Virus record (IMG/VR): IMGVR_UViG_2877285697_000001
Location: 1 to 16,422 of that record
DNA from: a virus
Lineage: Duplodnaviria; Heunggongvirae; Uroviricota; Caudoviricetes
Reading direction: 5' to 3' (one strand)
Length of the DNA stretch: 16,422 nt
How positions within the stretch are numbered: position 1 is the first letter of the stretch; every line of letters starts with the position of its first letter. This document shows positions 1 to 16,422 of this stretch, one piece after another. The notes under the pieces were generated by a model. The model did not search any database, was not told the origin of the DNA, and was given only the letters and a program-made list of their open reading frames with translations. Made by a program: the position numbers and the translations under genes.

Positions 1-303
1 TTAACGCGTATTTTTCAGCGACTCCTGTGCAAAATACGCTGTTGCTTTTTTTAATATATCTCGCTCAAGGCGAGCTTCATTTAACGCCTTACGCAGTTGC
101 AGAATTTCAGATTCCAGTTCAGCCACCGTGCGGGAACCAGGAGTACCGAGCCCTTTTCTGGCGGCGGTAACCCATTGTCCTAAAGTGCCTTCAGGAAGGG
201 ATAATCGGGAAGCGCCTTCACTGATCGAAAGTTGATTTTCAAGAACCGTTCTGACAGCTTCGGCTTTGAACTCTTTAGAGTAACGTTGGGTTTTTCTGCT
301 CAT
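1..303 (-). CDS. IS600 OrfA, IS3-family transposase HTH subunit (100 aa)
   Basis: Six-frame ORF MSRKTQRYSKEFKAEAVRTVLENQLSISEGASRLS..., recognised as IS600/IS3-family OrfA; second copy at 4473-4775. Confidence 0.9.
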   Translation of the reverse strand: MSRKTQRYSKEFKAEAVRTVLENQLSISEGASRLSLPEGTLGQWVTAARKGLGTPGSRTVAELESEILQLRKALNEARLERDILKKATAYFAQESLKNTR

Positions 304-367
304 TATTAGCTCCTTCTGATGCCATTCTATTTCAGGAAGGAGTGTCCGTTAAACTCAGGCTACCTCA
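1..367 (-). mobile_element. IS600 (IS3 family) copy, cut by the window start; its orfA-proximal terminus ends at 367
   Basis: 351-367 AAACTCAGGCTACCTCA is the reverse complement of the left terminus TGAGGTAGCCTGAGTTT of the complete copy at 4409; orfA is identical apart from one residue. Confidence 0.85.
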
Positions 368-535
368 GGTGATATCACCACTATCCAGTCGTTACGCCAT
401 ACCTCCGATCTTGATACCGGAGAGATGTATGTCTTCCTGTGTAAGGTTGAAGCCTGGGCGATGAATATTGGTTGCCATCTGACTATTCCGCAGAGCTGCG
501 AGTTCCAGCAGCTCCGCGACAAGCAGGAGGCGTAA
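368..535 (+). pseudogene. 3' fragment of the lambdoid nin-region gene preceding ninE (ybcN-like by synteny only); 5' part removed by IS600
   Basis: Open frame runs from the IS600 terminus at 367 to TAA at 533-535, which overlaps the ninE ATG; no start codon inside the window. Confidence 0.45.
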
Positions 536-705
536 TGGCTACACCGCTTATTCGTGTCATGAACGGACACATCTACAGAGTACCAAATCGTCGTAAGCGT
601 AAGCCTGAGCTGAAGCCATCCGAAATACCAACACTGCTCGGATATACCGCCAGCCTGGTTGATAAAAAATGGTTGCGACTGGCAGCAAGGAGGAGTCATG
701 GCTGA
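535..705 (+). CDS. ninE: NinE (56 aa)
   Basis: [56 protein letters not shown]; ATG at 535 inside the longer track ORF 472-705; DLP12 ninE by recollection and synteny. Confidence 0.8.
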   Translation: MATPLIRVMNGHIYRVPNRRKRKPELKPSEIPTLLGYTASLVDKKWLRLAARRSHG

Positions 706-988
706 TTTGAGAAAAGCAGCGCGTGGTCGGGAATGCCAGGTAAGAATCCCTGGCGTATGTAATGGCAACCCTGAAACGTCTGTACTGGCACATATTTGGC
801 TGGCTGGATTGTGCGGCACCGGTATTAAACCGCCAGACCTGATTGCCACCATTGCATGTTCTGCCTGTCACGATGAGATCGACCGTCGCACGAATTTTGT
901 TGACGCTGGATATGCAAAAGAATGCGCGCTGGAAGGTCTGGCGAGAACACAGGTTATCTGGCTGAAAGAGGGGGTTATTAAGGCGTGA
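698..988 (+). CDS. ybcO: YbcO, DUF1364-type putative nuclease (96 aa)
   Basis: ATG at 698 preceded by AGGAGG (688-693); [30 protein letters not shown]...; overlaps ninE stop. Confidence 0.8.
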
Positions 989-1347
989 ATACCTACAGCA
1001 TCACACTACCCTGGCCGCCGAGCAATAACCGCTACTACCGCCATAATCGAGGGCGCACGCACATCAGCGCAGAAGGGCAGGCATACCGCGATAACGTCGC
1101 CCGAATCATTAAAGGCTCAATGCTGGATATCGGTCTGGCTATGCCTGTGAAAATCCGCATTGAGTGCTACATGCCGGATCGCCGTCGCCGTGACCTGGAT
1201 AATCTACAAAAAGCCTCTTTTGATGCACTCACCAAAGCAGGTTTCTGGCTGGATGATGCTCAGGTCGTTGATTACCGCGTTGTGAAGATGCCGGTTGTCA
1301 AAGGTGGAAAGCTGGAACTGACCATCACTGAACTGGGAGATGAATGA
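985..1347 (+). CDS. rusA: RusA Holliday-junction resolvase (120 aa), GTG start overlapping ybcO stop
   Basis: [26 protein letters not shown]...[14 protein letters not shown], near-identical to recalled E. coli K-12 RusA. Confidence 0.9.
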
Positions 1348-1484
1348 TGTTTGAGTTTTATATGGCAGAACTTCTTCGCCACCGCTGGATGCGCCTGCGC
1401 TTATATCGTTTCCCCAGTTCTGTTTTGACCGATTACCGAATACTGAGGAATTACGCCAAAACCCTGACAGGAGCAGGAGTATGA
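1344..1484 (+). CDS. ylcG: Small protein YlcG (46 aa), below the ORF-track size cutoff
   Basis: ATGATG at 1344 overlapping the rusA stop; translation [46 protein letters not shown], stop TGA 1482-1484. Confidence 0.55.
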
Positions 1485-1569
1485 AGTCAGAGATAACAAT
1501 CAACTAATACTGTTTTGTTGATTTTTGCTTGTAATTGGCGTTCTGGTCTGATTTTTGTGGAGTAAGTTG

Positions 1570-1953
1570 ATGCGTGATATTCAGATGGTTCTTGAGCGTT
1601 GGGGAGCGTGGGCGGCTAATAATCATGAAGATGTGACCTGGTCGTCCATTGCCGCCGGTTTTAAGGGATTAATTCCTTCAAAAGTAAAATCTCGCCCGCA
1701 ATGTTGTGACGATGACGCGATGATCATTTGCGGGTGCATGGCCCGTCTGAAAAAGAACAACAGCGATTTGCACGATTTATTAGTAGATTATTATGTAGTC
1801 GGTATGACATTCATGTCACTGGCAGGTAAGCATTGCTGCTCTGATGGTTATATCGGGAAAAGGTTACAGAAGGCTGAGGGCATAATTGAAGGGATGTTAA
1901 TGGCATTAGATATTCGGTTAGAGATGGATATCGTTGTTAATAACTCTAATTAA
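1570..1953 (+). CDS. quuD: Late-gene antiterminator Q (127 aa)
   Basis: [34 protein letters not shown]... from ATG 1570; the track ORF begins at an upstream TTG at 1555. Confidence 0.85.
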
Positions 1954-1969
1954 TATGCCAATTGTTTAC

Positions 1970-2004
1970 TAAAAATTATTAAAAATGGGGCGTTGCAACG
2001 CCCC
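1970..2004 (-). terminator. Candidate intrinsic terminator for the minus-strand porin transcript
   Basis: Perfect palindrome GGGGCGTTGCAACGCCCC (1987-2004); on the minus strand it is followed by a T-rich run (complement of 1970-1986). Confidence 0.4.
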
Positions 2005-2141
2005 CAAAAATAAAGGGTAATATATAACAGAAGGTTTATATAGTTAGAAGCAAGGTTGTGCTCCTAAAGGAAGTGGCTTGAGGGAGCCACTTATATGTTG
2101 GGGAGGCAAAGCCTCCCGCAACATATCTTTTAGTAATCAAA

Positions 2142-3224
2142 TTAGAACTGGTAAACCATACCTACAGCAACGATATCATCGGTAGCAACGCCAGATGCTT
2201 TCGTGAAATCGCTCTTATCAATCAGGTTGATTTTGTAATCAACAAAAGTGGACATATTTTTGTTGAAGTAATAGGTTGCACCTACATCAATATATTCAAC
2301 CAGGTCCTGATCACCCCACGCACCCAAGTCTTTTCCTTTAGATTGCAGGTAAGCAACGGACGGACGCAGACCGAAGTCGAACTGATATTGTGCAACTACT
2401 TCGAAGTTTTGTGCTTTGTTGGCAATATGGTTATTACCAAAAACAGTCATGTTCTGGGTTTCAGAATAGGTGGTAGCCAGATAGATGTTGTTCGCATCAT
2501 ATTTCAGACCAGCTGCCCATACTTCAGCATTTTGACCAGATGCATTCAGGCTGTTGTTACCGTAGATAACCTGATTATTAGTGCGGTCAGATTTAGCATA
2601 GGTTGCACCTACACCGAATCCTTCATACTCATAAGTAGTGGAGAAACCGAAACCATCACCATTAGCTTCAGTTACGTCAGTGCGGTCATTTTTACCCTGA
2701 TACTGAGCAGCAAAGTTCAGACCATCAACCAGACCAAAGAAGTCGTTGTTACGATAAGTTGCAACACCAGTGGTGCGACCAGTCATGAACACATCTGTTT
2801 GGCTCCAGGTATCGCCACCGAATTCTGGCAGAACGTCAGTCCACGCACCGATGTCATATGCTACACCGTAGTTACGGCCGTAATCGATTGAGCCGTAGTC
2901 CCCGAATTTCAGGCCTGCAAATGCAAGACGGGTTTTGTCTTTGGAGGAGCCTTGAGATTCAGCGCGGTTACCTTTGAATTCATATTCCCACTGACCGAAA
3001 CCAGTCAGTTGATCGTTGATTTGGGTTTCACCTTTGAAGCCAAGACGGGCATAAGTAGTATCACCATCATCTGCATCATTAGAGGAGAAGTAGTGCTTGG
3101 CATTAACTTTCCCGTACAGATCCAGCTTGTTACTGTCTTTATTATAAATTTCAGCTGCCTGAGCAGACATCGCCATCAGTACTGATGCAGCTACAGCAGA
3201 AATTGCCACTGTTAATTTTTTCAT
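2142..3224 (-). CDS. nmpC: Outer-membrane general porin NmpC (OmpC/OmpF/OmpD family), intact 360 aa with signal peptide
   Basis: [23 protein letters not shown] signal peptide, porin repeats, C-terminal ...VGMVYQF; sits between Q and holin as in DLP12. Confidence 0.9.
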
Positions 3225-3812
3225 CGTGAGCCCTTTTTTTTGAACTATTATTAAAAAATGATGTCACTGCGCGATAAATATTCATCTAATCAATGTGATT
3301 ATTTCAAGATGTAAGTTTTAGTTTCTCATTTAATTTGTGAAGTAGATCTCTATTTTTATCTGAACTTTTTCTATCGAAACCTATTTATGGCTCTTATTTG
3401 AACAAAAATAAACCTATTAGCTAATTTATATTAATGGCTGTTATTTATGGGGGTTCTATAATTCGGTGGTTTAATTTAAATCAACTAAAAATAACGCCGG
3501 AAATTATTTATTGGTTATTTGTTGAGGTTTTCTTATGTATTTGTGGTGGTGTTTTGAACACTCGGTAGCATTCTCATAAATATCATTCAGTGGTTTACGT
3601 ACGTAAAAAATTGGTTATGCTGTTAAGAGTGGTTACTTCGTCACGCAGCTTAAACCCGCCGTCGAGCTGGTTTTTCCATTTTTTGAGTCTCGATATTAGC
3701 TGATAACTCAATACCTGAGTTATTCACTGACTCCGAGTCTGTTACGTTTCTGCTTTTTTGCGATACGTTGTATTCCCTCAATTTACACCCGCTTTGTCTG
3801 CGAGGTGGGGTT

Positions 3813-4028
3813 ATGAAATCCATGGATAAGTTAACAACGGGTGTCGCCTATGGCACCTCAGCAGGTAGTGCCGGTTACTGGTTTTTACAGCTGCTCGATA
3901 AAGTCACGCCCTCACAGTGGGCAGCAATAGGTGTGCTGGGTAGCCTGGTATTTGGCCTGCTGACGTACCTGACAAACCTTTATTTCAAGATTAAAGAAGA
4001 TAAGCGCAAGGCTGCGAGAGGTGAATAA
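3813..4028 (+). CDS. essD: Holin EssD (71 aa)
   Basis: [71 protein letters not shown] from ATG 3813. Confidence 0.8.
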
Positions 4029-4408
4029 TGCCTCCATCATTACGAAAAGCCGTTGCTGCTGCTATTGGTGGCGGAGCAATTGCTATAGCATCAGTGTTAA
4101 TCACTGGCCCAGGTGGTAACGATGGTCTGGAAGGTGTCAGCTACATACCATACAAAGATATTGTTGGTGTATGGACTGTATGTCACGGGCATACAGGAAA
4201 AGACATCATGCTCGGTAAAACGTATACCAAAGCAGAATGCAAAGCCCTCCTGAATAAAGACCTTGCCACGGTCGCCAGACAAATTAACCCGTACATAAAA
4301 GTTGATATACCGGAAACAACGCGCGGCGCTCTTTACTCGTTCGTTTACAACGTGGGCGCTGGCAATTTCAGAACATCGACACTTCTTCGCAAAATAAACC
4401 AGGGCGAT
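4028..4408 (+). pseudogene. rrrD: Endolysin (lysozyme) RrrD, 3'-truncated by IS600 after residue 127
   Basis: [28 protein letters not shown]...; frame stops at TGA 4409-4411 formed by the IS600 terminus TGAGG; recalled K-12 RrrD is about 165 aa. Confidence 0.85.
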
Positions 4409-4472
4409 TGAGGTAGCCTGAGTTTAACGGACACTCCTTCCTGAAATAGAATGGCATCAGAAGGAGCTAATA

Positions 4473-4775
4473 ATGAGCAGAAAAACCCAACGTTACTCTA
4501 AAGAGTTCAAAGCCGAAGCTGTCAGAACGGTTCTTGAAAATCAACTTTCGATCAGTGAAGGCGCTTCCCGATTATCCCTTCCTGAAGGCACTTTAGGACA
4601 ATGGGTTACCGCCGCCAGAAAAGGGCTCGGTACTCCTGGTTCCCACACGGTGGCTGAACTGGAATCTGAAATTCTGCAACTGCGTAAGGCGTTAAATGAA
4701 GCTCGCCTTGAGCGAGATATATTAAAAAAAGCAACAGCGTATTTTGCACAGGAGTCGCTGAAAAATACGCGTTAA
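4473..4775 (+). CDS. IS600 OrfA
   Basis: 100-aa ORF; differs from the copy at 1-303 by one residue (H58 versus R58). Confidence 0.9.
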   Translation: MSRKTQRYSKEFKAEAVRTVLENQLSISEGASRLSLPEGTLGQWVTAARKGLGTPGSHTVAELESEILQLRKALNEARLERDILKKATAYFAQESLKNTR

Positions 4776-4810
4776 TCGAACAATGGCGACAACAATTTCC
4801 CATTGAAGCG

Positions 4811-5629
4811 ATGTGTCAGGTATTTGGTGTATCCAGGAGCGGTTATTACAACTGGGTACAGCATGAACCCTCAGACAGAAAACAAAGTGATGAGCGGCTA
4901 AAACTGGAGATTAAGGTGGCACATATCCGCACTCGCGAAACATATGGAACCCGGCGGCTCCAGACGGAGCTGGCAGAGAATGGCATCATCGTTGGTCGTG
5001 ACCGGCTGGCACGTCTTCGTAAGGAGCTAAGGCTACGCTGTAAGCAGAAACGCAAGTTCAGAGCGACTACGAACCCGAACCACAATCTGCCAGTTGCGCC
5101 AAATCTGCTGAACCAGACGTTCGCTCCTACAGCACCAAATCAGGTCTGGGTGGCGGACCTGACGTATGTTGCCACACAGGAGGGATGGTTGTACCTCGCT
5201 GGCATCAAAGATGTTTATACGTGCGAAATTGTCGGCTACGCCATGGGAGAGCGCATGACAAAAGAGCTGACAGGTAAAGCCCTGTTTATGGCGCTCAGGA
5301 GCCAGCGCCCACCTGCCGGGCTAATCCACCACTCTGATCGAGGTTCACAGTACTGCGCATACGATTACCGGGTCATACAGGAGCAGTCTGGTCTGAAAAC
5401 ATCAATGTCGCGTAAAGGTAACTGTTACGACAACGCTCCGATGGAAAGCTTCTGGGGAACGCTGAAAAATGAGAGCCTGAGCCACTATCGTTTTAATAAC
5501 CGGGATGAAGCCATCTCAGTAATACGGGAATACATTGAGATTTTCTACAATCGTCAGCGTCGTCACTCTCGTCTGGGGAATATCTCCCCGGCAGCCTTCA
5601 GGGAAAAATATCATCAGATGGCTGCTTAA
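4811..5629 (+). CDS. IS600 OrfB, DDE transposase catalytic subunit (made as OrfAB by -1 frameshift)
   Basis: 272-aa ORF with rve-type DDE motifs (...HSDRGSQY...NAPMESFWGTLK...), frame -1 relative to orfA. Confidence 0.9.
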   Translation: MCQVFGVSRSGYYNWVQHEPSDRKQSDERLKLEIKVAHIRTRETYGTRRLQTELAENGIIVGRDRLARLRKELRLRCKQKRKFRATTNPNHNLPVAPNLLNQTFAPTAPNQVWVADLTYVATQEGWLYLAGIKDVYTCEIVGYAMGERMTKELTGKALFMALRSQRPPAGLIHHSDRGSQYCAYDYRVIQEQSGLKTSMSRKGNCYDNAPMESFWGTLKNESLSHYRFNNRDEAISVIREYIEIFYNRQRRHSRLGNISPAAFREKYHQMAA

Positions 5630-5766
5630 AAAAAGAACAAATGGTAGTGTCCGCTATTGCCAGTACACCTCAACCGGTTACGACATCAACCAGGTCTTTG
5701 GTTTCATAACCGAGATATGTGTGTTTGAGAGCATCTTTGTAGTGGTCAACAAAAACTGGCCACCGA

Positions 5767-6915
<1,149 letters not shown>

Positions 6916-6971
6916 TATGGCACCTGTGTTGTTCTGAGGTGAGCATATCACCTCTGTTCAGGTGGCCAAAT

Positions 6972-7619
6972 TCAGTAAACCACTTCAACCCCTTCATACA
7001 ACATATCAAGACGCTCAACAATCAATCCTGTTGGAGGTTCCATTTTTAGAACGAGGGCAAACTCTCCTGGCCCACGTCGTATTGTTATACGCGGGCCGGT
7101 ACACTCCACATCCCAATTGTCTGATTTAGCTTTCCATTCATTTTCATCTATCAGTAAAGTCTCCTTACCAATAGAATTATAGAAAATTCCTGATAAAAGC
7201 ATCGGTCCATGTGGTATGGGTGAAGGTTTCACAGAAAGAATGGGTTGTTCGTTGACTACAATCAAATTTTGACAGTTATGAAACGTCACTCCTGCAAATT
7301 TTACTGTTATAGGCTCATTATGAAAATCAAACATTTCATTTGCAAAACCAGCCTGTAAGCACTTGGGATTTCTGTCAGCTATTTCCACTGTCTGTGCTGA
7401 AAGTCTACCACGAGCTCTTTTTTGATTGTATTGGGAGCAAAGAAGTGTCATTCCATTCGGATCATGTACTTTGGCATCAACGAAGTCAGGTTTAAAATGC
7501 TCATAATCATAAAATCCAAATCCACAAATTACACAGCCAAAGCCGCACCTTTGCCTTATCTGACGTTTTATTGTCTCAGGTATTCTTCTTGAGAGCCCGT
7601 GTTTATTAATATTGTCCAT
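6972..7619 (-). CDS. HNH-endonuclease-like domain protein (215 aa); the last five codons and stop lie inside the IS911 terminus
   Basis: N-terminal CGFGCVICG...YEHFKP...DPNGMTLLCSQYNQKRA resembles an HNH (His-Me finger) motif; C-terminal 140 aa unassigned; IS911 end at 6987 overlaps the 3' end. Confidence 0.5.
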   Translation of the reverse strand: MDNINKHGLSRRIPETIKRQIRQRCGFGCVICGFGFYDYEHFKPDFVDAKVHDPNGMTLLCSQYNQKRARGRLSAQTVEIADRNPKCLQAGFANEMFDFHNEPITVKFAGVTFHNCQNLIVVNEQPILSVKPSPIPHGPMLLSGIFYNSIGKETLLIDENEWKAKSDNWDVECTGPRITIRRGPGEFALVLKMEPPTGLIVERLDMLYEGVEVVY

Positions 7620-7749
7620 ATGGTTAGTACGCTATAAGTTTGTTTCTATAATTTTACCACAATAGATAAGTTTGTATCAGAAATCGCTATATGGAGTGAG
7701 CGGAATATTTATATTATTCATGCAATTGCTCTCCCGTACGCAGCCCGCA

Positions 7750-7775
7750 CTTCCGTCATCGCAGAATGACGGAAG
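7750..7775. other. Perfect 10-bp stem hairpin CTTCCGTCAT-cgcaga-ATGACGGAAG
   Basis: Exact inverted repeat 19 bp downstream of the stop of minus-strand gene 7794-8117; no T-run on either strand. Confidence 0.5.
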
Positions 7776-7793
7776 CCTTACTAACTGGCGCCT

Positions 7794-8117
7794 TTATTGA
7801 AACAGATTCTGAGGTAAATGCGGCAATACTCGACTCCACTTATCATCCTGCCACGGCTGAAGTTTTACATGTGCCGTTTCTCGGACGAGGATTGCTCGCG
7901 CTCTGTTGAGTATCTGGGGATATTCTTGCTCGATGGAAGTGAAGTGACCAGCTTCACCATGCTCCGCATCCTGAAGAAGATGAGTAACGTTCTGGTAGGC
8001 AATTAACATCACATTCCCTGCTCGCCATAACCAGGCGAGTGTGCAAAGTTCGTTATCAGTGAATTGTTTTGTGATTGGGGATTGTTGAACTGCTAGAACG
8101 AGAACGCCAGCATCCAT
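7794..8117 (-). CDS. Hypothetical protein (107 aa), no family recognised
   Basis: ATG (complement of 8115-8117) preceded by AGGGA Shine-Dalgarno on the minus strand; co-directional with flanking genes. Confidence 0.45.
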   Translation of the reverse strand: MDAGVLVLAVQQSPITKQFTDNELCTLAWLWRAGNVMLIAYQNVTHLLQDAEHGEAGHFTSIEQEYPQILNRARAILVRETAHVKLQPWQDDKWSRVLPHLPQNLFQ

Positions 8118-8228
8118 TGGCAGTCCCTATAGTAAAACCATAGCTCAGGACGCTTCGTTCAGGATAGATAATTTTATTGTACTTACCTAACTTTCTTACT
8201 ATAGCACGGTTGAAAAAGTGATTATTAC

Positions 8229-8832
8229 TCAAAAATAAACCTCACCATCAACCATATATTTGAGAGTACTTATCGCCTGCTGGGCGGATATTGTTTTCAT
8301 TAAAGGATAGTGTTTAAAAACAATGCCATTCATAAAATAGATATCACAGGTTTTATTATCTGTATTGATTATGATTTTTTCGAATGTTTTATAGGCAAGT
8401 GTACGACATAGCTCTCGCCCATTTTTACTGGTTAAGTCAATAGCATGAAAATCACCAAGTGAGCTCACCGCTTTACTCTTCAAAGTTTTTAATGATACAG
8501 AAGCCCTTCGTAATTCCTTATCTAATACTCTGATTTTTTCTGCTATAGCGGTAACTTCAGGCGCAACAGATAATGCAGCAATTAAATTATTAATTTTCAT
8601 ATGGAGCTCAATAATTTTCAACTCTAAAGTTTCATTAGCATCTTTCTTGTTTTCAACTGGTTGGATTTTACTACAATTAAAAAGCAACTCATTAATGATA
8701 TTATAATCAACCAAATCTCTCTTTATTGATGGCCTGCCACATCGATGCAGTCTTCTCATCGGACAAACATAATAGCCATGCAAACTTCCAGATACCGCCT
8801 GAACAATCATGGTATTACCACAAGCCTCGCAC
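8229..8832 (-). pseudogene. C-terminal fragment of a large serine recombinase (zinc beta-ribbon plus coiled-coil), N-terminal catalytic part replaced by IS1
   Basis: PCEACGNTMIVQAVSGSLHGYYVCPMRRLHRCGRP matches the recombinase zinc-ribbon pattern C-x2-C...YYxC...C, followed by coiled-coil-like LELKIIELHMKINNLIAAL...; frame is open into the IS1 end at 8833 with no ATG. Confidence 0.55.
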
Positions 8833-8887
8833 GGTAATGCTGCCAACTTACTGATTTAGTGTATGATGGTGATTTTAAGGTGCTTGC

Positions 8888-9163
8888 GTGGCTTCCATTT
8901 CCATCAGATGTCCTTCCTGCTCCGCTACTGAAGGCGTGGTGCGTAACGGCAAAAGCACTGCCGGACATCAGCGCTATCTCTGCTCTCATTGCCGTAAAAC
9001 ATGGCAACTACAGTTCACTTACACCGCCTCTCAGCCCGGTACGCACCAGAAAATCATTGATATGGCCATGAATGGCGTCGGATGTCGCGCCAGTGCACGC
9101 ATTATGGGCGTTGGCCTCAACACGGTTTTACGTCACTTAAAAAACTCAGGCCGCAGTCGGTAA
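8888..9163 (+). CDS. insA: IS1 InsA (91 aa)
   Basis: [66 protein letters not shown]... Confidence 0.95.
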
Positions 9164-9585
9164 CCTCGCGCATACAACCGGGCAGTGATGTGATTGTCTG
9201 CGCTGAAATGGACGAACAGTGGGGCTACGTCGGTGCTAAATCACGTCAGCGCTGGCTGTTTTACGCGTATGACAGGATACGGAGGACGGTTGTGGCGCAC
9301 GTCTTCGGTGAACGCACTCTGGCCACACTGGAGCGTCTTCTGAGCCTGCTGTCGGCCTTTGAGGTCGTGGTATGGATGACGGATGGCTGGCCGCTGTATG
9401 AATCACGCCTGAAGGGAAAGCTGCACGTTATCAGCAAGCGTTACACTCAGCGCATTGAGCGACATAATCTGAATCTGAGACAACATCTGGCAAGGCTGGG
9501 ACGGAAGTCACTGTCGTTCTCAAAATCGGTGGAGCTGCATGACAAGGTCATCGGGCATTATCTGAACATAAAACACTATCAGTAA
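9082..9585 (+). CDS. insB: IS1 InsB reading frame (expressed as InsAB' by frameshift)
   Basis: 167-aa ORF ...[65 protein letters not shown]. Confidence 0.9.
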
Positions 9586-9694
9586 GTTGGAGTCATTACC
9601 GAGAACGATTTATCACCGCAGTCGGGCTAAATCCGCTAGTCTGTTGGTATGTAAGTGGTTGCATAGTCATTGCCTTATCAGTTAACGCCGCAGT

Positions 9695-9922
9695 TTAGGC
9701 GGCAGAATTACTCGCGTTAAACAATGGTGCGAGGTCGGGACGAATATCTGCTGGTTTAATCTTTCCACCAGTGGCTGAGACAATTTTCATTACATAGCGG
9801 GCATCAATTCCGCCACCGTGTAGCCAACGCCAAACTGTGGGTTGGGCTACACCGCATAGATCTGCCAGTCGTTTTTGACTACCTGTAATACTGATTGCGA
9901 GTTGAATGGTTTGATTTGTCAT
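9695..9922 (-). CDS. Cro-like HTH regulator (75 aa)
   Basis: MTNQTIQLAISITGSQKRLADLCGVAQPTVWRWLHGG... HTH; ATG (complement of 9920-9922) with AGGA 9 nt upstream; divergent from the repressor gene. Confidence 0.7.
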   Translation of the reverse strand: MTNQTIQLAISITGSQKRLADLCGVAQPTVWRWLHGGGIDARYVMKIVSATGGKIKPADIRPDLAPLFNASNSAA

Positions 9923-10032
9923 TATCAATTCCTGTTGGTATTGCAATGAATGAATAATAGCAATGCGTATTAATCCAAGCAATAGCAAAACGTGTTTTGA
10001 CCATCAATACGCAAGCGTATAAATTAAAACTT
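9923..10032. promoter_or_regulatory. Divergent immunity control region (pR-like and pRM-like promoters with operator dyads)
   Basis: Minus-strand promoter: -35 TTGCTT (complement of 9977-9982), 17-bp spacer, -10 TATTAT (complement of 9954-9959). Dyads AATAGCAATGCGTATT (9956-9971) and ATACGCAAGCGTAT (10007-10020). TATAAA (10017-10022) lies 10 nt before the cI ATG. Confidence 0.45.
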
Positions 10033-10725
10033 ATGAAAAAAGAAACTCTTGCTGATCGCTTAAACCTAGCGATGGAACAATCTGGAATGTCTCAAGGCGC
10101 TCTTGCAAAGGCGTCTGGCGTAGCTCAACCCACAATCTGGAGACTGACAAGCGGCAACGCGCGCGGCTCAACAAAAATTGTTGAAATAGCTAATGCATTG
10201 GGGGTTCGAACAGAATGGCTCTCATCAGGCATAGGCCCGATGAGAAATGACGGTCAACAATCAGGGAAGCCTGCTGTCAGCCATTCAAAATACTTCAAGA
10301 TTGACGTTCTTGATATAGAAGTCAGTGCCGGGCCGGGTGTAATCAACCGTGAGTTTGTAGAAGTTCTACGCTCGGTTGAGTACTCGTTTGACGATGCTCG
10401 TCACATGTTCGATGGCAGGAAGGCGGAAAATATCCGCATCATTAACGTGCGTGGTGACAGCATGTCAGGAACGATCGAACCAGGTGATCTTCTGTTCGTT
10501 GATATCACGGTTAAATCTTTCGACGGTGATGGTATCTATGCGTTTCTGTATGACGACACAGCCCATGTAAAGCGCCTGCAAATGATGAAGGATAAGCTGC
10601 TGGTTATCTCTGATAACAAGAGCTACTCACCGTGGGACCCGATCGAGAAAGACGAGATGAACCGGGTATTCATCTTCGGGAAAGTCATCGGAAGCATGCC
10701 GCAGACGTATAGGAAGCATGGGTAG
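10033..10725 (+). CDS. CI-like prophage repressor, N-terminal HTH plus C-terminal S24 (LexA-like) autopeptidase (230 aa)
   Basis: MKKETLADRLNLAMEQSGMSQGALAKASGVAQPTIWRL... HTH; C-terminal ...RGDSMSGTIEPGDLLFVD...HVKRLQ... Ser/Lys dyad motifs; ATG 10033 chosen inside track ORF 9997-10725. Confidence 0.85.
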   Translation: MKKETLADRLNLAMEQSGMSQGALAKASGVAQPTIWRLTSGNARGSTKIVEIANALGVRTEWLSSGIGPMRNDGQQSGKPAVSHSKYFKIDVLDIEVSAGPGVINREFVEVLRSVEYSFDDARHMFDGRKAENIRIINVRGDSMSGTIEPGDLLFVDITVKSFDGDGIYAFLYDDTAHVKRLQMMKDKLLVISDNKSYSPWDPIEKDEMNRVFIFGKVIGSMPQTYRKHG

Positions 10726-10836: not shown

Positions 10837-10851
10837 TTACCATAATGGTAA
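10837..10851. promoter_or_regulatory. Perfect 15-bp palindrome TTACCATAATGGTAA overlapping the first ATG of the toxin gene
   Basis: Exact dyad symmetry (7-1-7) read directly from the sequence. Confidence 0.35.
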
Positions 10852-11255
10852 CAAGTATGATTCTTAGCAGATATGTGGGAACTCCTCCCCGTGATGGCGA
10901 GGACAGAAAGATTCAAGGTGGTCCGCTTTATTTAGATATCATTGATTTGATTGATGAATGTGACACACTGCCTTGGACCAGACGGTGTATCAGGGATGTT
11001 CAATCGCTTTCTTTAGATGCAGATGACATCAAATCTATGGTGATAAAAGCAGTCACTAAAGGGAGATTTCTAGGTTCAGAATGGTGTCAAGGCAGTAAAC
11101 CAGGTGTATGGGCAGCTTGTGATGCTTATAGCTTTGAGCACTCATTTTGGTGCCAAGCTATGCATAAAGAACTTAATAACGAGTTCTACATTAAATTTTT
11201 TGTAAACATTACTGGCAATGTAGTGCTTACAGTATCTCTTCATCTCTCTAATTGA
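10845..11255 (+). CDS. MqsR-like toxin (putative mRNA interferase); start may instead be ATG 10857
   Basis: Blocks shared with recalled E. coli MqsR: ...TRR...LSLD, DDIKSM (MqsR SDFYKSM), EFYIKFFVNITGNVVLTVSL (MqsR QVYLKITVIHDVLIVSF); toxin gene precedes antitoxin as in mqsRA. Confidence 0.6.
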   Translation: MVTSMILSRYVGTPPRDGEDRKIQGGPLYLDIIDLIDECDTLPWTRRCIRDVQSLSLDADDIKSMVIKAVTKGRFLGSEWCQGSKPGVWAACDAYSFEHSFWCQAMHKELNNEFYIKFFVNITGNVVLTVSLHLSN

Positions 11256-11279
11256 GTGATGATAAATGAGGATTTTTAT

Positions 11280-11867
11280 ATGAGAAACAACAACATATGT
11301 CCAGTTTGTGGTGTAGGTCATCTCACCGTGGAGATGGAGTATGATGATGTTACTTATAAAGGGGAAACAAAAAATCTCCCAATAAGGTTTTCTGTGTGTG
11401 ATCAATGTGGTTCGGAAACTGCCACACCAGTCGATTTACGAGAAAACAAACGAATTTTCAATGAATACAAAAAGTCTATCGATGGACTTTTAACAGGAAA
11501 AGAATTAAAAAAAATTAGAACTGAAGTATGGATGATAACCCAGCAAAAGGCATCCTCTATATTTGGTGGGGGGCCTAAGGCATTTTCCAAGTATGAATCT
11601 GATGATGTCATTCAATCAGAAGCAATGGATAAACTGATGCGTTTAGCAGCAGAAGTTCCTGATGCATTCAAAAGGTTACGGGAATTATCTGGCGAAATCA
11701 AAGTTGAAAGAACAGTCTCATCATCTAAATCTTTACCTATATGGAAATCTGAAGCAAAAGCACAATTTGAAAACGATGATCAGGGATTTGACAGCAAATC
11801 ACCAGCCCAAACAAAAATGAATCAAACATCAATAAAGATAAAAACTGTTGCTAAGCGGGTAGCATGA
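11280..11867 (+). CDS. MqsA-like antitoxin (zinc-ribbon plus XRE-type HTH) with about 60-aa C-terminal extension (195 aa)
   Basis: MRNNNICPVCGVGHL...CDQCGSE zinc ribbon; LTGKELKKIRTEVWMITQQKASSIFGGGPKAFSKYE matches the recalled MqsA HTH block (IFGGGVNAFSRYE); GAGGA 7 nt upstream of ATG 11280; canonical MqsA is about 131 aa. Confidence 0.75.
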   Translation: MRNNNICPVCGVGHLTVEMEYDDVTYKGETKNLPIRFSVCDQCGSETATPVDLRENKRIFNEYKKSIDGLLTGKELKKIRTEVWMITQQKASSIFGGGPKAFSKYESDDVIQSEAMDKLMRLAAEVPDAFKRLRELSGEIKVERTVSSSKSLPIWKSEAKAQFENDDQGFDSKSPAQTKMNQTSIKIKTVAKRVA

Positions 11868-12367
11868 TGAATGAACTTCTTAGATCAGCAATAGACGCAT
11901 TATCAATAATGCATATCAATATCAGAGAATCTAACTTTGCTTTTTCTGAAGGGTATAATAGCTTTAACTTCAACAGCATAAATAAGCAAACACAATCATT
12001 TCGTAAGATAAAAAAAATCGAAGCTATTGAATTAGTAAGTGACGATGACTCATTAAAAAATGAGCTATATTACTCTTTTCACTACTCAGTTGGGCTTAGA
12101 TTTATTGCAAAATCCGAAGAAACATCTAAAGACGAAAATGATGTTGATACAATTTTTTCTATAGAAGCAATTTTTGAGGCGATATATCGCTCAAAGAGAG
12201 AATTATCTAAAGAAGAGTTAGAAGAATTTGCTAAGCAAAATGTAGGTTTTAATGTATGGCCTTTTTGGCGAGAGTATGTTCAAAACAGCACATCCAGAAT
12301 GGGAATTACTACAATAGCTATACCATTCTTTAAATTCAATAAATCAGACATACCTTCATTAGATTAA
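11864..12367 (+). CDS. SecB-like chaperone (167 aa), translationally coupled to the antitoxin (ATGA overlap)
   Basis: N-terminal LSIMHINIRESNFAFS versus SecB FQIQRIYTKDISFEAP; C-terminal TIFSIEAIF and NVWPFWREYVQNSTSRMG...IPFFKF versus SecB GGIFSIAGIE and NILFPYARECITSMVSRG...APVNF (E. coli SecB from recollection). Confidence 0.55.
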   Translation: MMNELLRSAIDALSIMHINIRESNFAFSEGYNSFNFNSINKQTQSFRKIKKIEAIELVSDDDSLKNELYYSFHYSVGLRFIAKSEETSKDENDVDTIFSIEAIFEAIYRSKRELSKEELEEFAKQNVGFNVWPFWREYVQNSTSRMGITTIAIPFFKFNKSDIPSLD

Positions 12368-12381
12368 ATTCAAATATAACT

Positions 12382-12408
12382 CCCGGCTACCGTGCCGGGT
12401 TTTCTTTT
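12382..12408 (+). terminator. Rho-independent terminator ending the repressor/TAC transcription unit
   Basis: CCCGGC-taccgt-GCCGGG stem-loop followed by TTTTCTTTT, 15 nt after the chaperone stop. Confidence 0.65.
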
Positions 12409-12549
12409 GTCCCCTCCCCTCATCACACACCGTTCAAAAAACCACCACGACCTCACTTCAGTTATCGCTATGCGATGCAAGTCACAAAATTAATTCTTTT
12501 TGCTATCAAACATTTAATATCAAAACACATCAACTAATAGCAGTGAGTA

Positions 12550-12578
12550 TTGGTATCACCAATAGCAATAGCTATTAT
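12550..12578 (+). promoter_or_regulatory. pL-like promoter with embedded operator dyads, reading toward gam-bet-exo
   Basis: -35 TTGGTA (12550-12555), 17-bp spacer, -10 TATTAT (12573-12578); dyads TTGGT-atc-ACCAA (12550-12562) and AATAGC-aata-GCTATT (12561-12576); the latter resembles the oR dyad at 9956-9971 and overlaps the -10 in the same way. Confidence 0.45.
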
Positions 12579-12771
12579 CACCATATCGCAACAACACAAC
12601 GATACGGCAACCACCTGATTCACCGTTGCGATGACCGCTTAGATCCGCAGCTTGAATTTCAGCAGGCTTCGGGGAGTGCGAGGGATGAAACGGACGCGTG
12701 AACGTCGGTGTGACCAGCTGAAATCAACTCAACATTTCATACCTTAGTCGCTTCAACGAGGCGGCTTAGTT

Positions 12772-13062
12772 ATGACAACCGGCGGCCATCCACCGCCTGA
12801 ATACGCGCAGAAGTCTTTATATGTTCAGCAGCCCAGCTTACGGGCAGGAGTTTTTATGGTTCATCAACATTACGGAACGCAGACCGTTAATCGCGGTGCG
12901 GTCATGCCAGGAATGCTGGTCAAACGCAAAGATGGTACCTGGACTGCATCAGCTAATTTACGCGGACGACTTTATCTGCATCGCGGCATTGAGCGCACTT
13001 ATACCCGTGACTTGCTCGTGGAAGTTTTTCTCGACGGACGCGGCAACGGTCTGAATCACTAA
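12772..13062 (+). CDS. Hypothetical protein in the kil position (start uncertain: 12772, 12856 or 12904)
   Basis: ORF ends at TAA 13060-13062 inside the TCACTAA motif that I recall as the lambda kil stop overlapping the long gam leader; protein unlike lambda Kil. Confidence 0.4.
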   Translation: MTTGGHPPPEYAQKSLYVQQPSLRAGVFMVHQHYGTQTVNRGAVMPGMLVKRKDGTWTASANLRGRLYLHRGIERTYTRDLLVEVFLDGRGNGLNH

Positions 13063-13137
13063 TCCCCTTTCCTGTTTTCCGAATCAGCCTGGCATTCCGC
13101 GGGCGATTTTTTCACAGCCATTTTCAGGAGTTCAGCC

Positions 13138-13434
13138 ATGAACGCTTATTACATTCAGGATCGTCTTGAGGCTCAGAGCTGGGCGCGTCACTACCAGCAG
13201 ATCGCCCGTGAAGAGAAAGAGGCAGAACTGGCAGACGACATGGAAAAAGGCCTGCCCCAGCACCTGTTTGAATCGCTATGCATCGATCATTTGCAACGCC
13301 ACGGGGCCAGCAAAAAAGCCATTACCCGTGCGTTTGATGACGATGTTGAGTTTCAGGAGCGCATGGCAGAACACATCCGGTACATGGTTGAAACCATTGC
13401 TCACCATCAGGTTGATATTGATTCAGAGGTATAA
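13138..13434 (+). CDS. gam: Gam (short form GamS, 98 aa), RecBCD inhibitor
   Basis: [56 protein letters not shown]..., near-identical to recalled lambda Gam; AGGAG 7 nt upstream. Confidence 0.9.
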
Positions 13435-13439
13435 AACGG

Positions 13440-14225
13440 ATGAGTACAGCACTCGCAACGCTGGCTGGGAAGCTGGCTGAACGTGTCGGCATGGATTCTG
13501 TCGACCCACAGGAACTGATCACCACTCTTCGCCAGACGGCATTTAAAGGCGATGCCAGCGATGCGCAGTTCATCGCATTGTTGATCGTCGCCAACCAGTA
13601 CGGCCTTAATCCGTGGACGAAAGAAATTTACGCCTTCCCTGACAAGCAGAACGGCATCGTTCCGGTGGTGGGCGTTGATGGCTGGTCCCGTATCATCAAT
13701 GAAAACCAGCAGTTTGATGGCATGGACTTTGAGCAGGACAATGAATCCTGCACATGCCGGATTTACCGCAAGGACCGTAATCATCCGATCTGCGTTACCG
13801 AGTGGATGGATGAATGCCGCCGCGAACCATTCAAAACCCGCGAAGGCAGAGAAATCACGGGGCCGTGGCAGTCGCATCCCAAACGGATGTTACGTCATAA
13901 AGCCATGATTCAGTGTGCCCGTCTGGCCTTCGGATTTGCTGGTATCTATGACAAGGATGAAGCCGAGCGCATTGTCGAAAATACCGCATACACTGCAGAA
14001 CGTCAGCCGGAACGCGACATCACTCCGGTTAACGATGAAACCATGCAGGAGATTAACACTCTGCTGATTGCCCTGGATAAAAAATGGGATGACGACTTAT
14101 TGCCGCTCTGTTCCCAGATATTTCGCCGCGACATTCGCGCATCGTCAGAACTGACACAGGTCGAAGCAGTGAAAGCTCTCGGATTCCTGAAACAGAAAGC
14201 CACTGAGCAGAAGGTGGCAGCATGA
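13440..14225 (+). CDS. bet: Bet (Red-beta) single-strand annealing protein (261 aa)
   Basis: [72 protein letters not shown]..., near-identical to recalled lambda Bet. Confidence 0.95.
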
Positions 14226-14902
14226 CACCGGACATTATCCTGCAGCGTACCGGGATCGATGTGAGAGCTGTCGAACAGGGGGATGATGCGTGGCACAAAT
14301 TACGGCTCGGCGTCATCACCGCTTCAGAAGTTCACAACGTGATAGCAAAACCCCGCTCCGGAAAGAAGTGGCCTGACATGAAAATGTCCTACTTCCACAC
14401 CCTGCTTGCCGAGGTTTGCACCGGTGTGGCTCCGGAAGTTAACGCTAAAGCACTGGCCTGGGGAAAACAGTACGAGAACGACGCCAGAACCCTGTTTGAG
14501 TTCACTTCCGGCGTGAATGTTATTGAATCCCCGATCATCTATCGCGACGAAAGTATGCGCACCGCCTGCTCTCCCGATGGTTTATGCAGTGATGGCAACG
14601 GCCTTGAACTGAAATGCCCGTTTACCTCCCGGGATTTCATGAAGTTCCGGCTCGGTGGTTTCGAGGCCATAAAATCGGCTTACATGGCCCAGGTGCAGTA
14701 CAGCATGTGGGTGGCACGAAAAGATGCCTGGTACTTTGCCAACTATGACCCGCGGATGAAGCGTGAAGGCCTGCATTATGTCGTGATTGAGCAGGATGAA
14801 AAGTACATGGCGAGTTTTGACGAGATGGTGCCGGAGTTCATCGAAAAAATGGACGAGGCACTGGCTGAAATTGGTTTTGTATTTGGGGAGCAATGGCGAT
14901 GA
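14222..14902 (+). CDS. exo: Exo (Red-alpha) 5'-3' exonuclease (226 aa)
   Basis: [68 protein letters not shown]...; ATGA overlap with bet as in lambda. Confidence 0.95.
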
Positions 14903-15669: not shown

Positions 15670-15724
15670 GGTAATGCTGCCAACTTACTGATTTAGTGTA
15701 TGATGGTGATTTTAAGGTGCTTGC

Positions 15725-16000
15725 GTGGCTTCCATTTCCATCAGATGTCCTTCCTGCTCCGCTACTGAAGGCGTGGTGCGTAACGGCAAAAGCACTGCCG
15801 GACATCAGCGCTATCTCTGCTCTCATTGCCGTAAAACATGGCAACTACAGTTCACTTACACCGCCTCTCAGCCCGGTACGCACCAGAAAATCATTGATAT
15901 GGCCATGAATGGCGTCGGATGTCGCGCCAGTGCACGCATTATGGGCGTTGGCCTCAACACGGTTTTACGTCACTTAAAAAACTCAGGCCGCAGTCGGTAA
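15725..16000 (+). CDS. insA: IS1 InsA
   Basis: Identical 91-aa translation to 8888-9163. Confidence 0.95.
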
Positions 16001-16422
16001 CCTCGCGCATACAACCGGGCAGTGATGTGATTGTCTGCGCTGAAATGGACGAACAGTGGGGCTACGTCGGTGCTAAATCACGTCAGCGCTGGCTGTTTTA
16101 CGCGTATGACAGGATACGGAGGACGGTTGTGGCGCACGTCTTCGGTGAACGCACTCTGGCCACACTGGAGCGTCTTCTGAGCCTGCTGTCGGCCTTTGAG
16201 GTCGTGGTATGGATGACGGATGGCTGGCCGCTGTATGAATCACGCCTGAAGGGAAAGCTGCACGTTATCAGCAAGCGTTACACTCAGCGCATTGAGCGAC
16301 ATAATCTGAATCTGAGACAACATCTGGCAAGGCTGGGACGGAAGTCACTGTCGTTCTCAAAATCGGTGGAGCTGCATGACAAGGTCATCGGGCATTATCT
16401 GAACATAAAACACTATCAGTAA
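15919..16422 (+). CDS. insB: IS1 InsB reading frame
   Basis: Identical 167-aa translation to 9082-9585; stop TAA at the window end. Confidence 0.9.

Follow-up and report, generated by a model that had tools for sequence, protein, structure and literature searches.

The DLP12-like segment with the nin genes, a Q-type antiterminator, an nmpC-type porin gene and the lysis genes lies between two oppositely oriented copies of IS600 in the analysed window (the whole stretch of DNA, 16,422 nucleotides long), raising the question of whether these elements simply interrupt an otherwise collinear prophage or whether the DNA between them has already been rearranged, and what this leaves of the lysis function. 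The window was 100% identical to the NCBI chromosome CP026827.1 across the 14,411 nt compared; the host DNA is a Shigella chromosome, most likely of S. dysenteriae. Scanning of the window with Rfam models and for tRNA genes produced no match. The locus is very probably a decayed DLP12-type lambdoid prophage, remodelled stepwise by insertion sequences, in which a 4-kb segment is already inverted.

The right IS600 copy (4409–5672, plus strand) is complete: its 1264 bp aligned gap-free over 1264 of 1264 nt with two RefSeq E. coli elements annotated as "IS3-like element IS600 family" at 99.4–99.5% identity, and it carries orfA (4473–4775, 100 aa) and an orfB ending at 5629 (272 aa; 1e-99 for OrfB against the NCBIfam model transpos_IS3). 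Apart from R58H in OrfA, this copy shows no notable difference from the IS600 reference, an element abundant in Shigella. Of the left copy, the window includes only the orfA-proximal (IRL) 367 bp (1–367, minus strand, orfA at 1–303); in the CP026827.1 record this copy is full length (1264 bp, excerpt 5077–6340). For both copies, a 385-aa IS3-type transposase that results from frameshift fusion of orfA and orfB and combines HTH_Tnp_1 with rve domains was called in the source record. The terminal repeats are imperfect, with ends starting with TGAGGT and common cores of the GCGGACACT kind, and the target duplication comprised 3 bp, reconstructed as GGT. As the original prediction had it, the two elements form an inverted pair with their orfA-proximal ends pointing toward the enclosed 4041-bp segment, the arms 1–367 and 4409–4775 being reverse complements with a single mismatch in 367 nt. 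Since the full-length copies differ in only 4 of 1264 nt (99.7% identity), the pair represents a good substrate for recombination.

The typical DLP12 nin-Q-lysis order, ybcN-ninE-ybcO-rusA-ylcG-quuD-(moron)-essD-rrrD, is present up to codon 127 of rrrD, and with nmpC between quuD and essD it matches the cryptic prophage DLP12 of E. coli K-12 and intact prophages related to it, such as those of E. coli strains 582 and MS 124-1, at 94–98% DNA identity. To the right follow the ybcK/P22AR and cI/kil/gam/bet/exo regions, as in these relatives. However, in contrast to them, the block from the nin genes to rrrD runs in the inverted direction, rrrD is broken off at codon 127, ybcN was hit twice, the genes for Rz/Rz1, bor, packaging and the tail are absent from the locus, and O, P, ren, emrE together with most of ybcK are deleted beside an IS1.

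The key evidence comes from ybcN, the gene upstream of ninE that had been expected to be truncated by an IS600 and that is indeed cut at codon 97 (GGT). Its 3' part (368–535, plus strand; codons 97–151 with the stop) aligns collinearly with the ybcN genes of E. coli strains MS 124-1 and 582, while codons 76–97 are located beyond the other IS600 on the minus strand (5673–5738; all 66 nt agree with the E. coli 582 excerpt 8367–8432). The breakpoint triplet (E. coli 582 excerpt 8367–8369) occurs twice in the window on opposite strands, as GGT at 368–370 and as ACC, i.e., GGT on the ybcN strand, at 5673–5675, so that each IS600 is left with one copy of the target duplication. Thus, the right element is flanked as GAT-IS-ACC and the left one, in its own orientation, as ACC-IS-CGC, neither having matching flanks. 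When the reverse complement of 5676–5960 was joined to 368–700, a gap-free alignment of 396 nt at 96.7% identity was obtained over the junction to the intact ybcN-ninE region. The comparison with an intact DLP12-type prophage proposed in the original prediction was run with E. coli 582: 368–4408 is reversed (aligned parts 368–1929 and 3802–4408), while collinearity holds for all the DNA to the right of the right IS600 copy, where 5673–5738, 6988–8832, 9601–10724 and 12382–14707 align forward and in order. The splitting of both the 3-bp target duplication and ybcN shows that the 4-kb segment has already been flipped with respect to the remaining prophage, and the ybcN fragment at 5673–5738 proves the inversion. 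The original view of the IS600 pair as an inversion substrate was sound as far as the inverted near-identical repeats are concerned, but it described as a mere potential a flip which, from the split duplication and the split gene, has taken place already.

A simple inversion between two IS elements would have placed the 3' end of rrrD and Rz directly left of the left IS600. This was rejected, since the outer flank there consists of the 3' part of glk and its downstream spacer, 99.7% identical to the corresponding E. coli region, with the break in the glk-fryB spacer 160 nt past glk and 58 nt before fryB. Therefore, the left copy must have come to adjoin the glk-fryB spacer through at least one further IS600 recombination, by which the remaining late region was detached. 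The reciprocal junction (IS600 IRR-GAT-rrrD 3', in string form CCAGTACACCTCA-GAT-ATCAAAGG) was not found within ±10 kb of the source record around the locus, nor was there an identical match in complete E. coli genomes or in one-genome-per-species contigs, the latter a collection that does not include this lineage. Two E. coli matches with 100% coverage were composed of two pieces, spanning 809 nt for a query of 560 nt, and therefore have IS600 at another position. The rrrD::IS600 junction of the window and both its ybcN::IS600 junctions were present in none of 5,426 complete E. coli genomes and in none of the species representatives, and the same genomes and representatives contained no strain with an un-inverted ybcN::IS600. 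The E. coli matches joining IS600 or ISEc52 with DLP12 genes (H1, H2 and H8) had the IS located at different sites.

The most probable history would start with an insertion of IS600 into ybcN at codon 97 with duplication of GGT, followed by a second IS600 entering rrrD after codon 127 in the opposite orientation. Recombination of the 1.26-kb inverted repeats would then have flipped the 4,041-bp segment ybcN'-ninE-ybcO-rusA-ylcG-quuD-nmpC-essD-rrrD', which would henceforth read away from the rest of the prophage. Finally, an IS600-by-IS600 exchange would have connected the left copy, at its outer end, with the glk-fryB spacer, whereby codons 128–165 of rrrD, Rz/Rz1 and all downstream late genes would have left the locus. 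We infer this order of events, as well as the RecA-type homologous character of the exchanges.

Several other explanations would also account for a near-identical inverted IS600 pair on both sides of the segment. Two independent simple insertions with no rearrangement so far would produce such a pair, but there is hardly any chance that this is the case: neither IS600 copy is surrounded by a 3-bp direct duplication, and the outer flanks are ybcN instead of the rrrD 3' part on the right and the glk-fryB spacer instead of the ybcN 5' part on the left. With two unrelated flanks each, neither copy is a simple insertion. The alternative of a composite transposon, in which IS600-segment-IS600 had moved as a block to a new site, agrees with two inverted IS copies around a 4-kb cargo and with a left outer flank of non-prophage chromosome; it is nevertheless just as implausible, because the outer flanks (...GCG of the glk-fryB spacer on the left and ACC... 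of ybcN codons 76–97 on the right) belong to unrelated loci and have no common duplication, and the right one resumes ybcN exactly where the inner left end leaves it, which fits an inversion in place rather than a block transposition.

The same split of GGT, between the inner flank of one IS600 and the outer flank of the other, would also be predicted if the ybcN IS600 had transposed intramolecularly into rrrD, creating the second inverted copy and the flip in a single step. This one-step route is unlikely, although it has a better chance than the other alternatives: the IS3-family elements move by a copy-out/paste-in mechanism via a circular intermediate, which does not normally produce replicative inversions, and the 4 differences between the IS600 copies fit older, independent copies. 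The inverted duplication of the rrrD target that would be diagnostic is no longer readable, glk-fryB DNA having later taken the place of the left outer flank. An assembly artefact is somewhat less probable still. Segments between inverted repeats exceeding the read length are a classic ambiguity, and the orientation of the 4 kb might have been mis-resolved between the 1.26-kb repeats or the culture might have contained both orientations, low-frequency flipping in culture being possible; yet the record is a finished 4.56-Mb chromosome, and flipping the segment back, while giving the right IS600 matching flanks, still leaves the left one joining the glk-fryB spacer to rrrD, i.e., a real rearrangement in either case.

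Besides the IS600 pair with its inversion, other insertion sequences contributed to the decay of the locus. Next to the short ybcN fragment lies an IS911/ISEc52-type element of the IS3 family (5738–6987, minus strand, 1250 bp), whose orfB contains an in-frame TAG and which is 97.4% identical to an annotated ISEc52 element. Beside it, 568 bp are missing in comparison with E. coli 582 (excerpt 8433–9000), comprising ybcN codons 1–75, a 33-aa ORF and the 3' end of a 260-aa ORF. The locus further contains two IS1 copies, with a deletion adjoining each.

The lysis genes have kept a complete holin and an incomplete endolysin. The essD gene (3813–4028, plus strand) encodes an intact phage-21-type holin of 71 aa, which agrees with EssD of E. 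coli in all 71 residues and matches the Pfam family "Bacteriophage P21 holin S" at 2e-35. In rrrD' (4028–4411, plus strand), codons 1–127 of 165 (4028–4408) are followed by a TGA (4409–4411) formed by the first three bases of IS600, which bears out the predicted cut after codon 127. The truncation removes 38 of the 165 residues, and the Pfam Phage_lysozyme match is limited to profile positions 3–96 of 125, positions 97–125 being gone. The remaining part differs little from the RrrD and R21 proteins of solved structure (4ZPU, 3HDE) and retains the N-terminal hydrophobic segment and E35/D44/T50, the catalytic positions of R21. Neither RzpD nor RrrD residues 128–165 nor Bor was matched by tblastn and blastn in the window plus 6 kb to its left (22 kb), and what lies just past the IS copies is not an intact endolysin gene with Rz/Rz1 but glk on the left and the 66-nt ybcN fragment with the IS911-like element on the right. 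The predicted lack of Rz/Rz1 and of a complete endolysin, hence of a complete lysis cassette, thus held for the whole region searched. The cassette shares its holin and endolysin type with that of phage 21, which consists of the S21 pinholin, the signal-anchor-release endolysin R21 and the Rz/Rz1 spanins; in contrast to the latter, it has an endolysin without the last 38 residues and no spanin genes, and it does not represent a functional cassette of this type. The 127-residue RrrD is presumably inactive, and the remnant, judged from its gene content, should be unable to lyse the cell. The loss of lysis is one among several defects of this prophage remnant.

All other genes of the segment have remained free of internal stops, as has essD. 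On the plus strand, ninE (535–705, 56 aa), ybcO (698–988, 96 aa), rusA (985–1347, 120 aa), ylcG (1344–1484, 46 aa) and quuD, encoding the Q-type antiterminator (1570–1953, 127 aa; Pfam Phage_antitermQ, 8.5e-54), are full length, equal to their E. coli references. The nmpC-type porin gene (2142–3224) is likewise intact: its 360-aa product has Porin_1/Porin_4 domains, and 359 of 360 residues agree with the protein named "porin OmpC" that is encoded by the DLP12-like prophage of E. coli MS 124-1. Unlike Q and the lysis genes, nmpC is a minus-strand gene, which corrects the earlier description, and it is therefore outside the Q-dependent late transcript. Q itself is separated from the early promoters by the inversion, IS600, the IS911-like element and the deletion of the O/P region. 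A consensus scan detected only the IS600's own inward promoter at each IRL, and no outward promoter-like site at the segment-facing IS600 end. Of the original expectation of continued expression of Q, the porin and the holin, what is shown is thus limited to the intact reading frames, with Q cut off from the early promoters and nmpC on the opposite strand; expression of Q and the holin from the prophage cascade has probably ceased.

With an intact antiterminator, pinholin, rusA and porin gene between inverted repeats, the segment might be imagined to flip reversibly, at a frequency high enough to be useful, as a crude phase switch that puts Q, the pinholin, rusA or antisense nmpC transcription under outside promoters or takes them away from these, and such a switch would generate subpopulations differing in porin expression or in holin-mediated death. 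We consider this very improbable. The data show one flip only, between repeats still 99.7% identical, and nothing observed favours regulation. The borders are whole 1.26-kb IS600 copies, which sets the segment apart from the programmed invertible switches of the Hin/Gin/Cin or Fim type with their dedicated site-specific invertase and short inverted recombination sites; no invertase gene is present in or beside it, and ybcK, the one gene of a recombinase family in the vicinity, has been truncated by IS1.

In genomes of S. dysenteriae type 1, 42 inversions of 0.7–400 kb have been reported, every one IS-associated (PMC7819885), and the 4-kb case, being within this size range, resembles the IS-flanked inversions described there and, as cited therein, by Yang et al. 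(2005) in being bounded by inverted IS copies. The defective prophages of that survey were not inducible. The survey was not aimed at the 4-kb inversion or at a non-Stx remnant of the DLP12 type, and our literature search found no published description of either. What the locus displays is an IS-driven genome decay of the kind ordinary for Shigella, and its value is limited mainly to correct annotation: the rrrD, ybcN and ybcK fragments should be entered as pseudogenes disrupted by IS elements, and the segment should be marked as inverted. Intact reading frames of rusA, Q, the porin and the holin persist in the remnant. The locus represents a worked example of prophage dismantling by IS600, IS911-like and IS1 elements in Shigella, combining truncation, inversion, adjacent deletion and long-range rejoining, in which the order of events may be read from the sequence alone by means of the split target duplications.

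The window was identical at 14,411 of 14,411 compared positions to the NCBI chromosome CP026827.1 (assembly GCA_002949935.1, 4.56 Mb), starting from position ~533,862, and it likely originates from Shigella dysenteriae; the density of IS600, IS911-like and IS1 elements is consistent with Shigella. The repeat search returned a single inverted pair, 1–367 against 4409–4775, with arms 1 base apart. The right arm belongs to an IS600 copy on the plus strand (4409–5672, 1264 bp; start TGAGGTAGCC, end GTACACCTCA), which was 99.4–99.5% identical, ungapped, to two RefSeq E. coli elements annotated as IS600 and whose OrfB matched the NCBIfam IS3 transposase model at 1e-99. The left copy (1–367, minus strand) is cut by the window edge; the full 1264-bp copy is present in the source record (5077–6340 of L003, the region of CP026827.1 that includes the DNA left of the window). 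The two copies differ at element positions 237, 597, 629 and 1194, the first of these placing Arg (left) or His (right) at OrfA residue 58. The orfA-proximal ends of both copies face the enclosed 4,041 bp, and the inward-facing inverted pair of the original prediction was thereby borne out.

The enclosed segment (368–4408) starts with ybcN' (368–535, codons 97–151 only), followed by ninE (535–705), ybcO (698–988), rusA (985–1347), ylcG (1344–1484), quuD (1570–1953), essD (3813–4028) and rrrD' (4028–4408, codons 1–127 of 165), all on the plus strand, and by a nmpC-type porin gene (2142–3224) on the minus strand. Apart from ybcN' and rrrD', all are full length, equal in length to their E. coli counterparts and free of internal stops. 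The predicted gene content was thus correct overall, except for the porin gene, whose strand is opposite to that of Q and the lysis genes. The porin gene, interrupted by IS5 in E. coli K-12, is intact here (360 aa, 359/360 residues shared with its counterpart in E. coli MS 124-1). The rusA gene, which in K-12 is expressed only upon activation by an upstream IS, is also intact and is located ~620 nt downstream of an IS600 end.

Simple insertions of IS3-family elements produce a 3-bp direct duplication, and this is absent from both IS600 copies: the right one is flanked by GAT on the orfA side and ACC on the other, and the left one, in its own orientation, by ACC and CGC. The 66 nt next to the right copy (5673–5738), starting with ACC (5673–5675), represent ybcN codons 76–97 on the minus strand; their reverse complement joined to position 368 onward, with one GGT dropped, gave an uninterrupted 396-nt alignment to the intact ybcN–ninE of E. 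coli MS 124-1. On L008, the intact related prophage of E. coli strain 582, window positions 5673–5738, 6988–8832, 9601–10724 and 12382–14707 aligned forward and in order, positions 368–1929 and 3802–4408 aligned in reverse, and L008 8367–8369 was represented twice, at 368–370 and 5673–5675. In strain 582 the cro-like gene, O, P, ren, emrE, ybcK, ybcN, ninE, rusA, Q, essD, rrrD and Rz are all on the same strand, while the ybcN'-to-rrrD' block of the window has the opposite strand. The pair had been proposed as a substrate for inversion; it is present, but the inversion is not merely potential, since the split duplication and the L008 geometry indicate that it has already happened. On this reading, ybcN received one IS600 at codon 97, another IS600 lay in rrrD facing the other way, and recombination between the two flipped all the intervening DNA. 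As products of this recombination, the copies are probably both chimeric.

An inversion between two IS copies predicts the rrrD 3' part and Rz beyond the left IS600, and both were absent there. The DNA at this place was 99.7% identical to the 3' part of E. coli glk with its downstream spacer, the breakpoint being 160 nt past glk and 58 nt upstream of fryB (outer IS600 end at L003 5077), with glk, yfeO, ypeC, mntH and nupC farther left. Because the left flank is the glk–fryB spacer and not rrrD 3'/Rz, at least one further IS600-by-IS600 exchange must have taken place with a partner copy in that spacer, either as a large inversion or as a deletion. The joining also means that the fry operon is parted from glk in the CP026827.1 genome. 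The prophage remnant adjoins DNA that is ~2 Mb distant on the E. coli K-12 map.

Two simple IS600 insertions are excluded by the flanks, and so is a composite transposon, whose outer flanks would share a duplication: here they have none in common, and the right one is the exact continuation of ybcN. A one-step transposition-coupled inversion would be expected to give the same split duplication as exchange between two resident copies; it would, however, be atypical of IS3-family elements, which are copy-out/paste-in movers, and the diagnostic flank has since been replaced. Mis-assembly across the inverted repeats is a further, unlikely possibility; even then, flipping the segment back would leave glk–fryB joined to rrrD.

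The last rrrD codon, 127 (GAT), is followed by TGA, formed by IS600 bases 1–3, so that the IS adds no encoded tail to RrrD'. Full-length RrrD has 165 aa (solved structures 4ZPU for RrrD, 3HDE and 3HDF for phage 21 R), and RrrD' covers only positions 3–96 of 125 in the Pfam lysozyme profile. The 127-residue product should retain the N-terminal hydrophobic segment and the catalytic positions Glu35/Asp44/Thr50, assigned as in R21, and is probably unstable without the C-terminal helices. Searches with RzpD, RrrD residues 128–165 and Bor were negative across the window and the 6 kb left of it. The predicted rrrD truncation and loss of Rz/Rz1 therefore held, and the truncated endolysin and absent spanin genes leave an incomplete phage 21-type lysis cassette. 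The exact 127-aa product is on record in 2 assemblies only. One match is in L004, the 3.1-kb contig DAKRAO010000073.1 of GCA_026683615.1 (2511–3121), whose end coincides precisely with rrrD codon 127 and whose product is identical. In L004 a YbgA-type gene takes the place of nmpC upstream of essD, and identity over essD–rrrD' is only 96.4%, indicating either that this IS600 junction is also carried by another prophage variant or that prophages have recombined.

Continued expression of Q, porin and holin, also predicted originally, is not established. Q normally relies on early-promoter transcripts that extend through nin, and this route is interrupted here by the inversion, by two insertion sequences (IS600 and the IS911-like element) and by the missing O/P region. 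In a promoter consensus scan of the IS600 end facing the segment, the only promoter-like match was directed into the IS, and a hairpin of glk's own stands between glk and IS600. The nmpC gene differs in orientation from Q and the lysis genes and presumably has its own promoter. Any late transcript after the inversion would enter IS600 orfA.

The IS911/ISEc52-type element (5738–6987, minus strand) is 97.4% identical to annotated ISEc52 and is probably not autonomous because of an in-frame TAG in orfB (…SLKNE*VPATG…); one of its terminal repeats is mismatched, with TGTAGTGG in place of TGAAGTGG. It adjoins a 568-bp deletion with loss of ybcN codons 1–75 and two reading frames (one whole, one part), and its end provides the last codons and stop of a 215-aa ORF at 6972–7619 (260 aa in E. 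coli 582). The first IS1 (8833–9600, plus strand) truncates ybcK and adjoins a 4,056-bp deletion relative to E. coli 582, with loss of most of ybcK (N-terminus), emrE, ren, P, O and ydaT. The second (15670–16422, plus strand) is identical to it over the 753 nt visible; in direct orientation the two bracket the cI/kil/gam/bet/exo region and form a substrate for deletion of the intervening 6 kb.

Within that region, three co-directional genes (10845–12367, plus strand) directly follow the cI-like repressor, in the slot of rexAB in lambda, which is occupied by other genes in E. coli 582. The first (136 aa) had no match in any library, the second encodes a 195-aa MqsA-family antitoxin (TIGR03830, 6e-33) with a ~60-aa C-terminal extension, and the third (167 aa) had only faint SecB-like matches (Pfam SecB 0.008; PADLOC PD-T4-9_C 7e-4; PDB 5MTW 'SecB-like chaperone Rv1957' 0.011). 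By layout, the trio looks like a toxin-antitoxin-chaperone (TAC) module, in which the upstream 136-aa toxin candidate is of no recognised family; TAC antitoxins bear such C-terminal extensions (PMC5105189).

Overall, the observation is confirmed and its interpretation is partly supported, with a later rejoining after the inversion. The components (IS600, DLP12-type prophages, phage 21-type lysis genes) are familiar, and inversions bounded by IS elements are commonplace in S. dysenteriae: one study described 42 of them, ranging from ~700 bp to almost 400 kb and each associated with an IS, and found the Stx prophage to be uninducible (PMC7819885). Since the 127-aa product is on record in two assemblies only and a search of 5,426 complete E. 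coli genomes found the junctions of the window in none, the arrangement is lineage-specific, yet of a kind that is already known.
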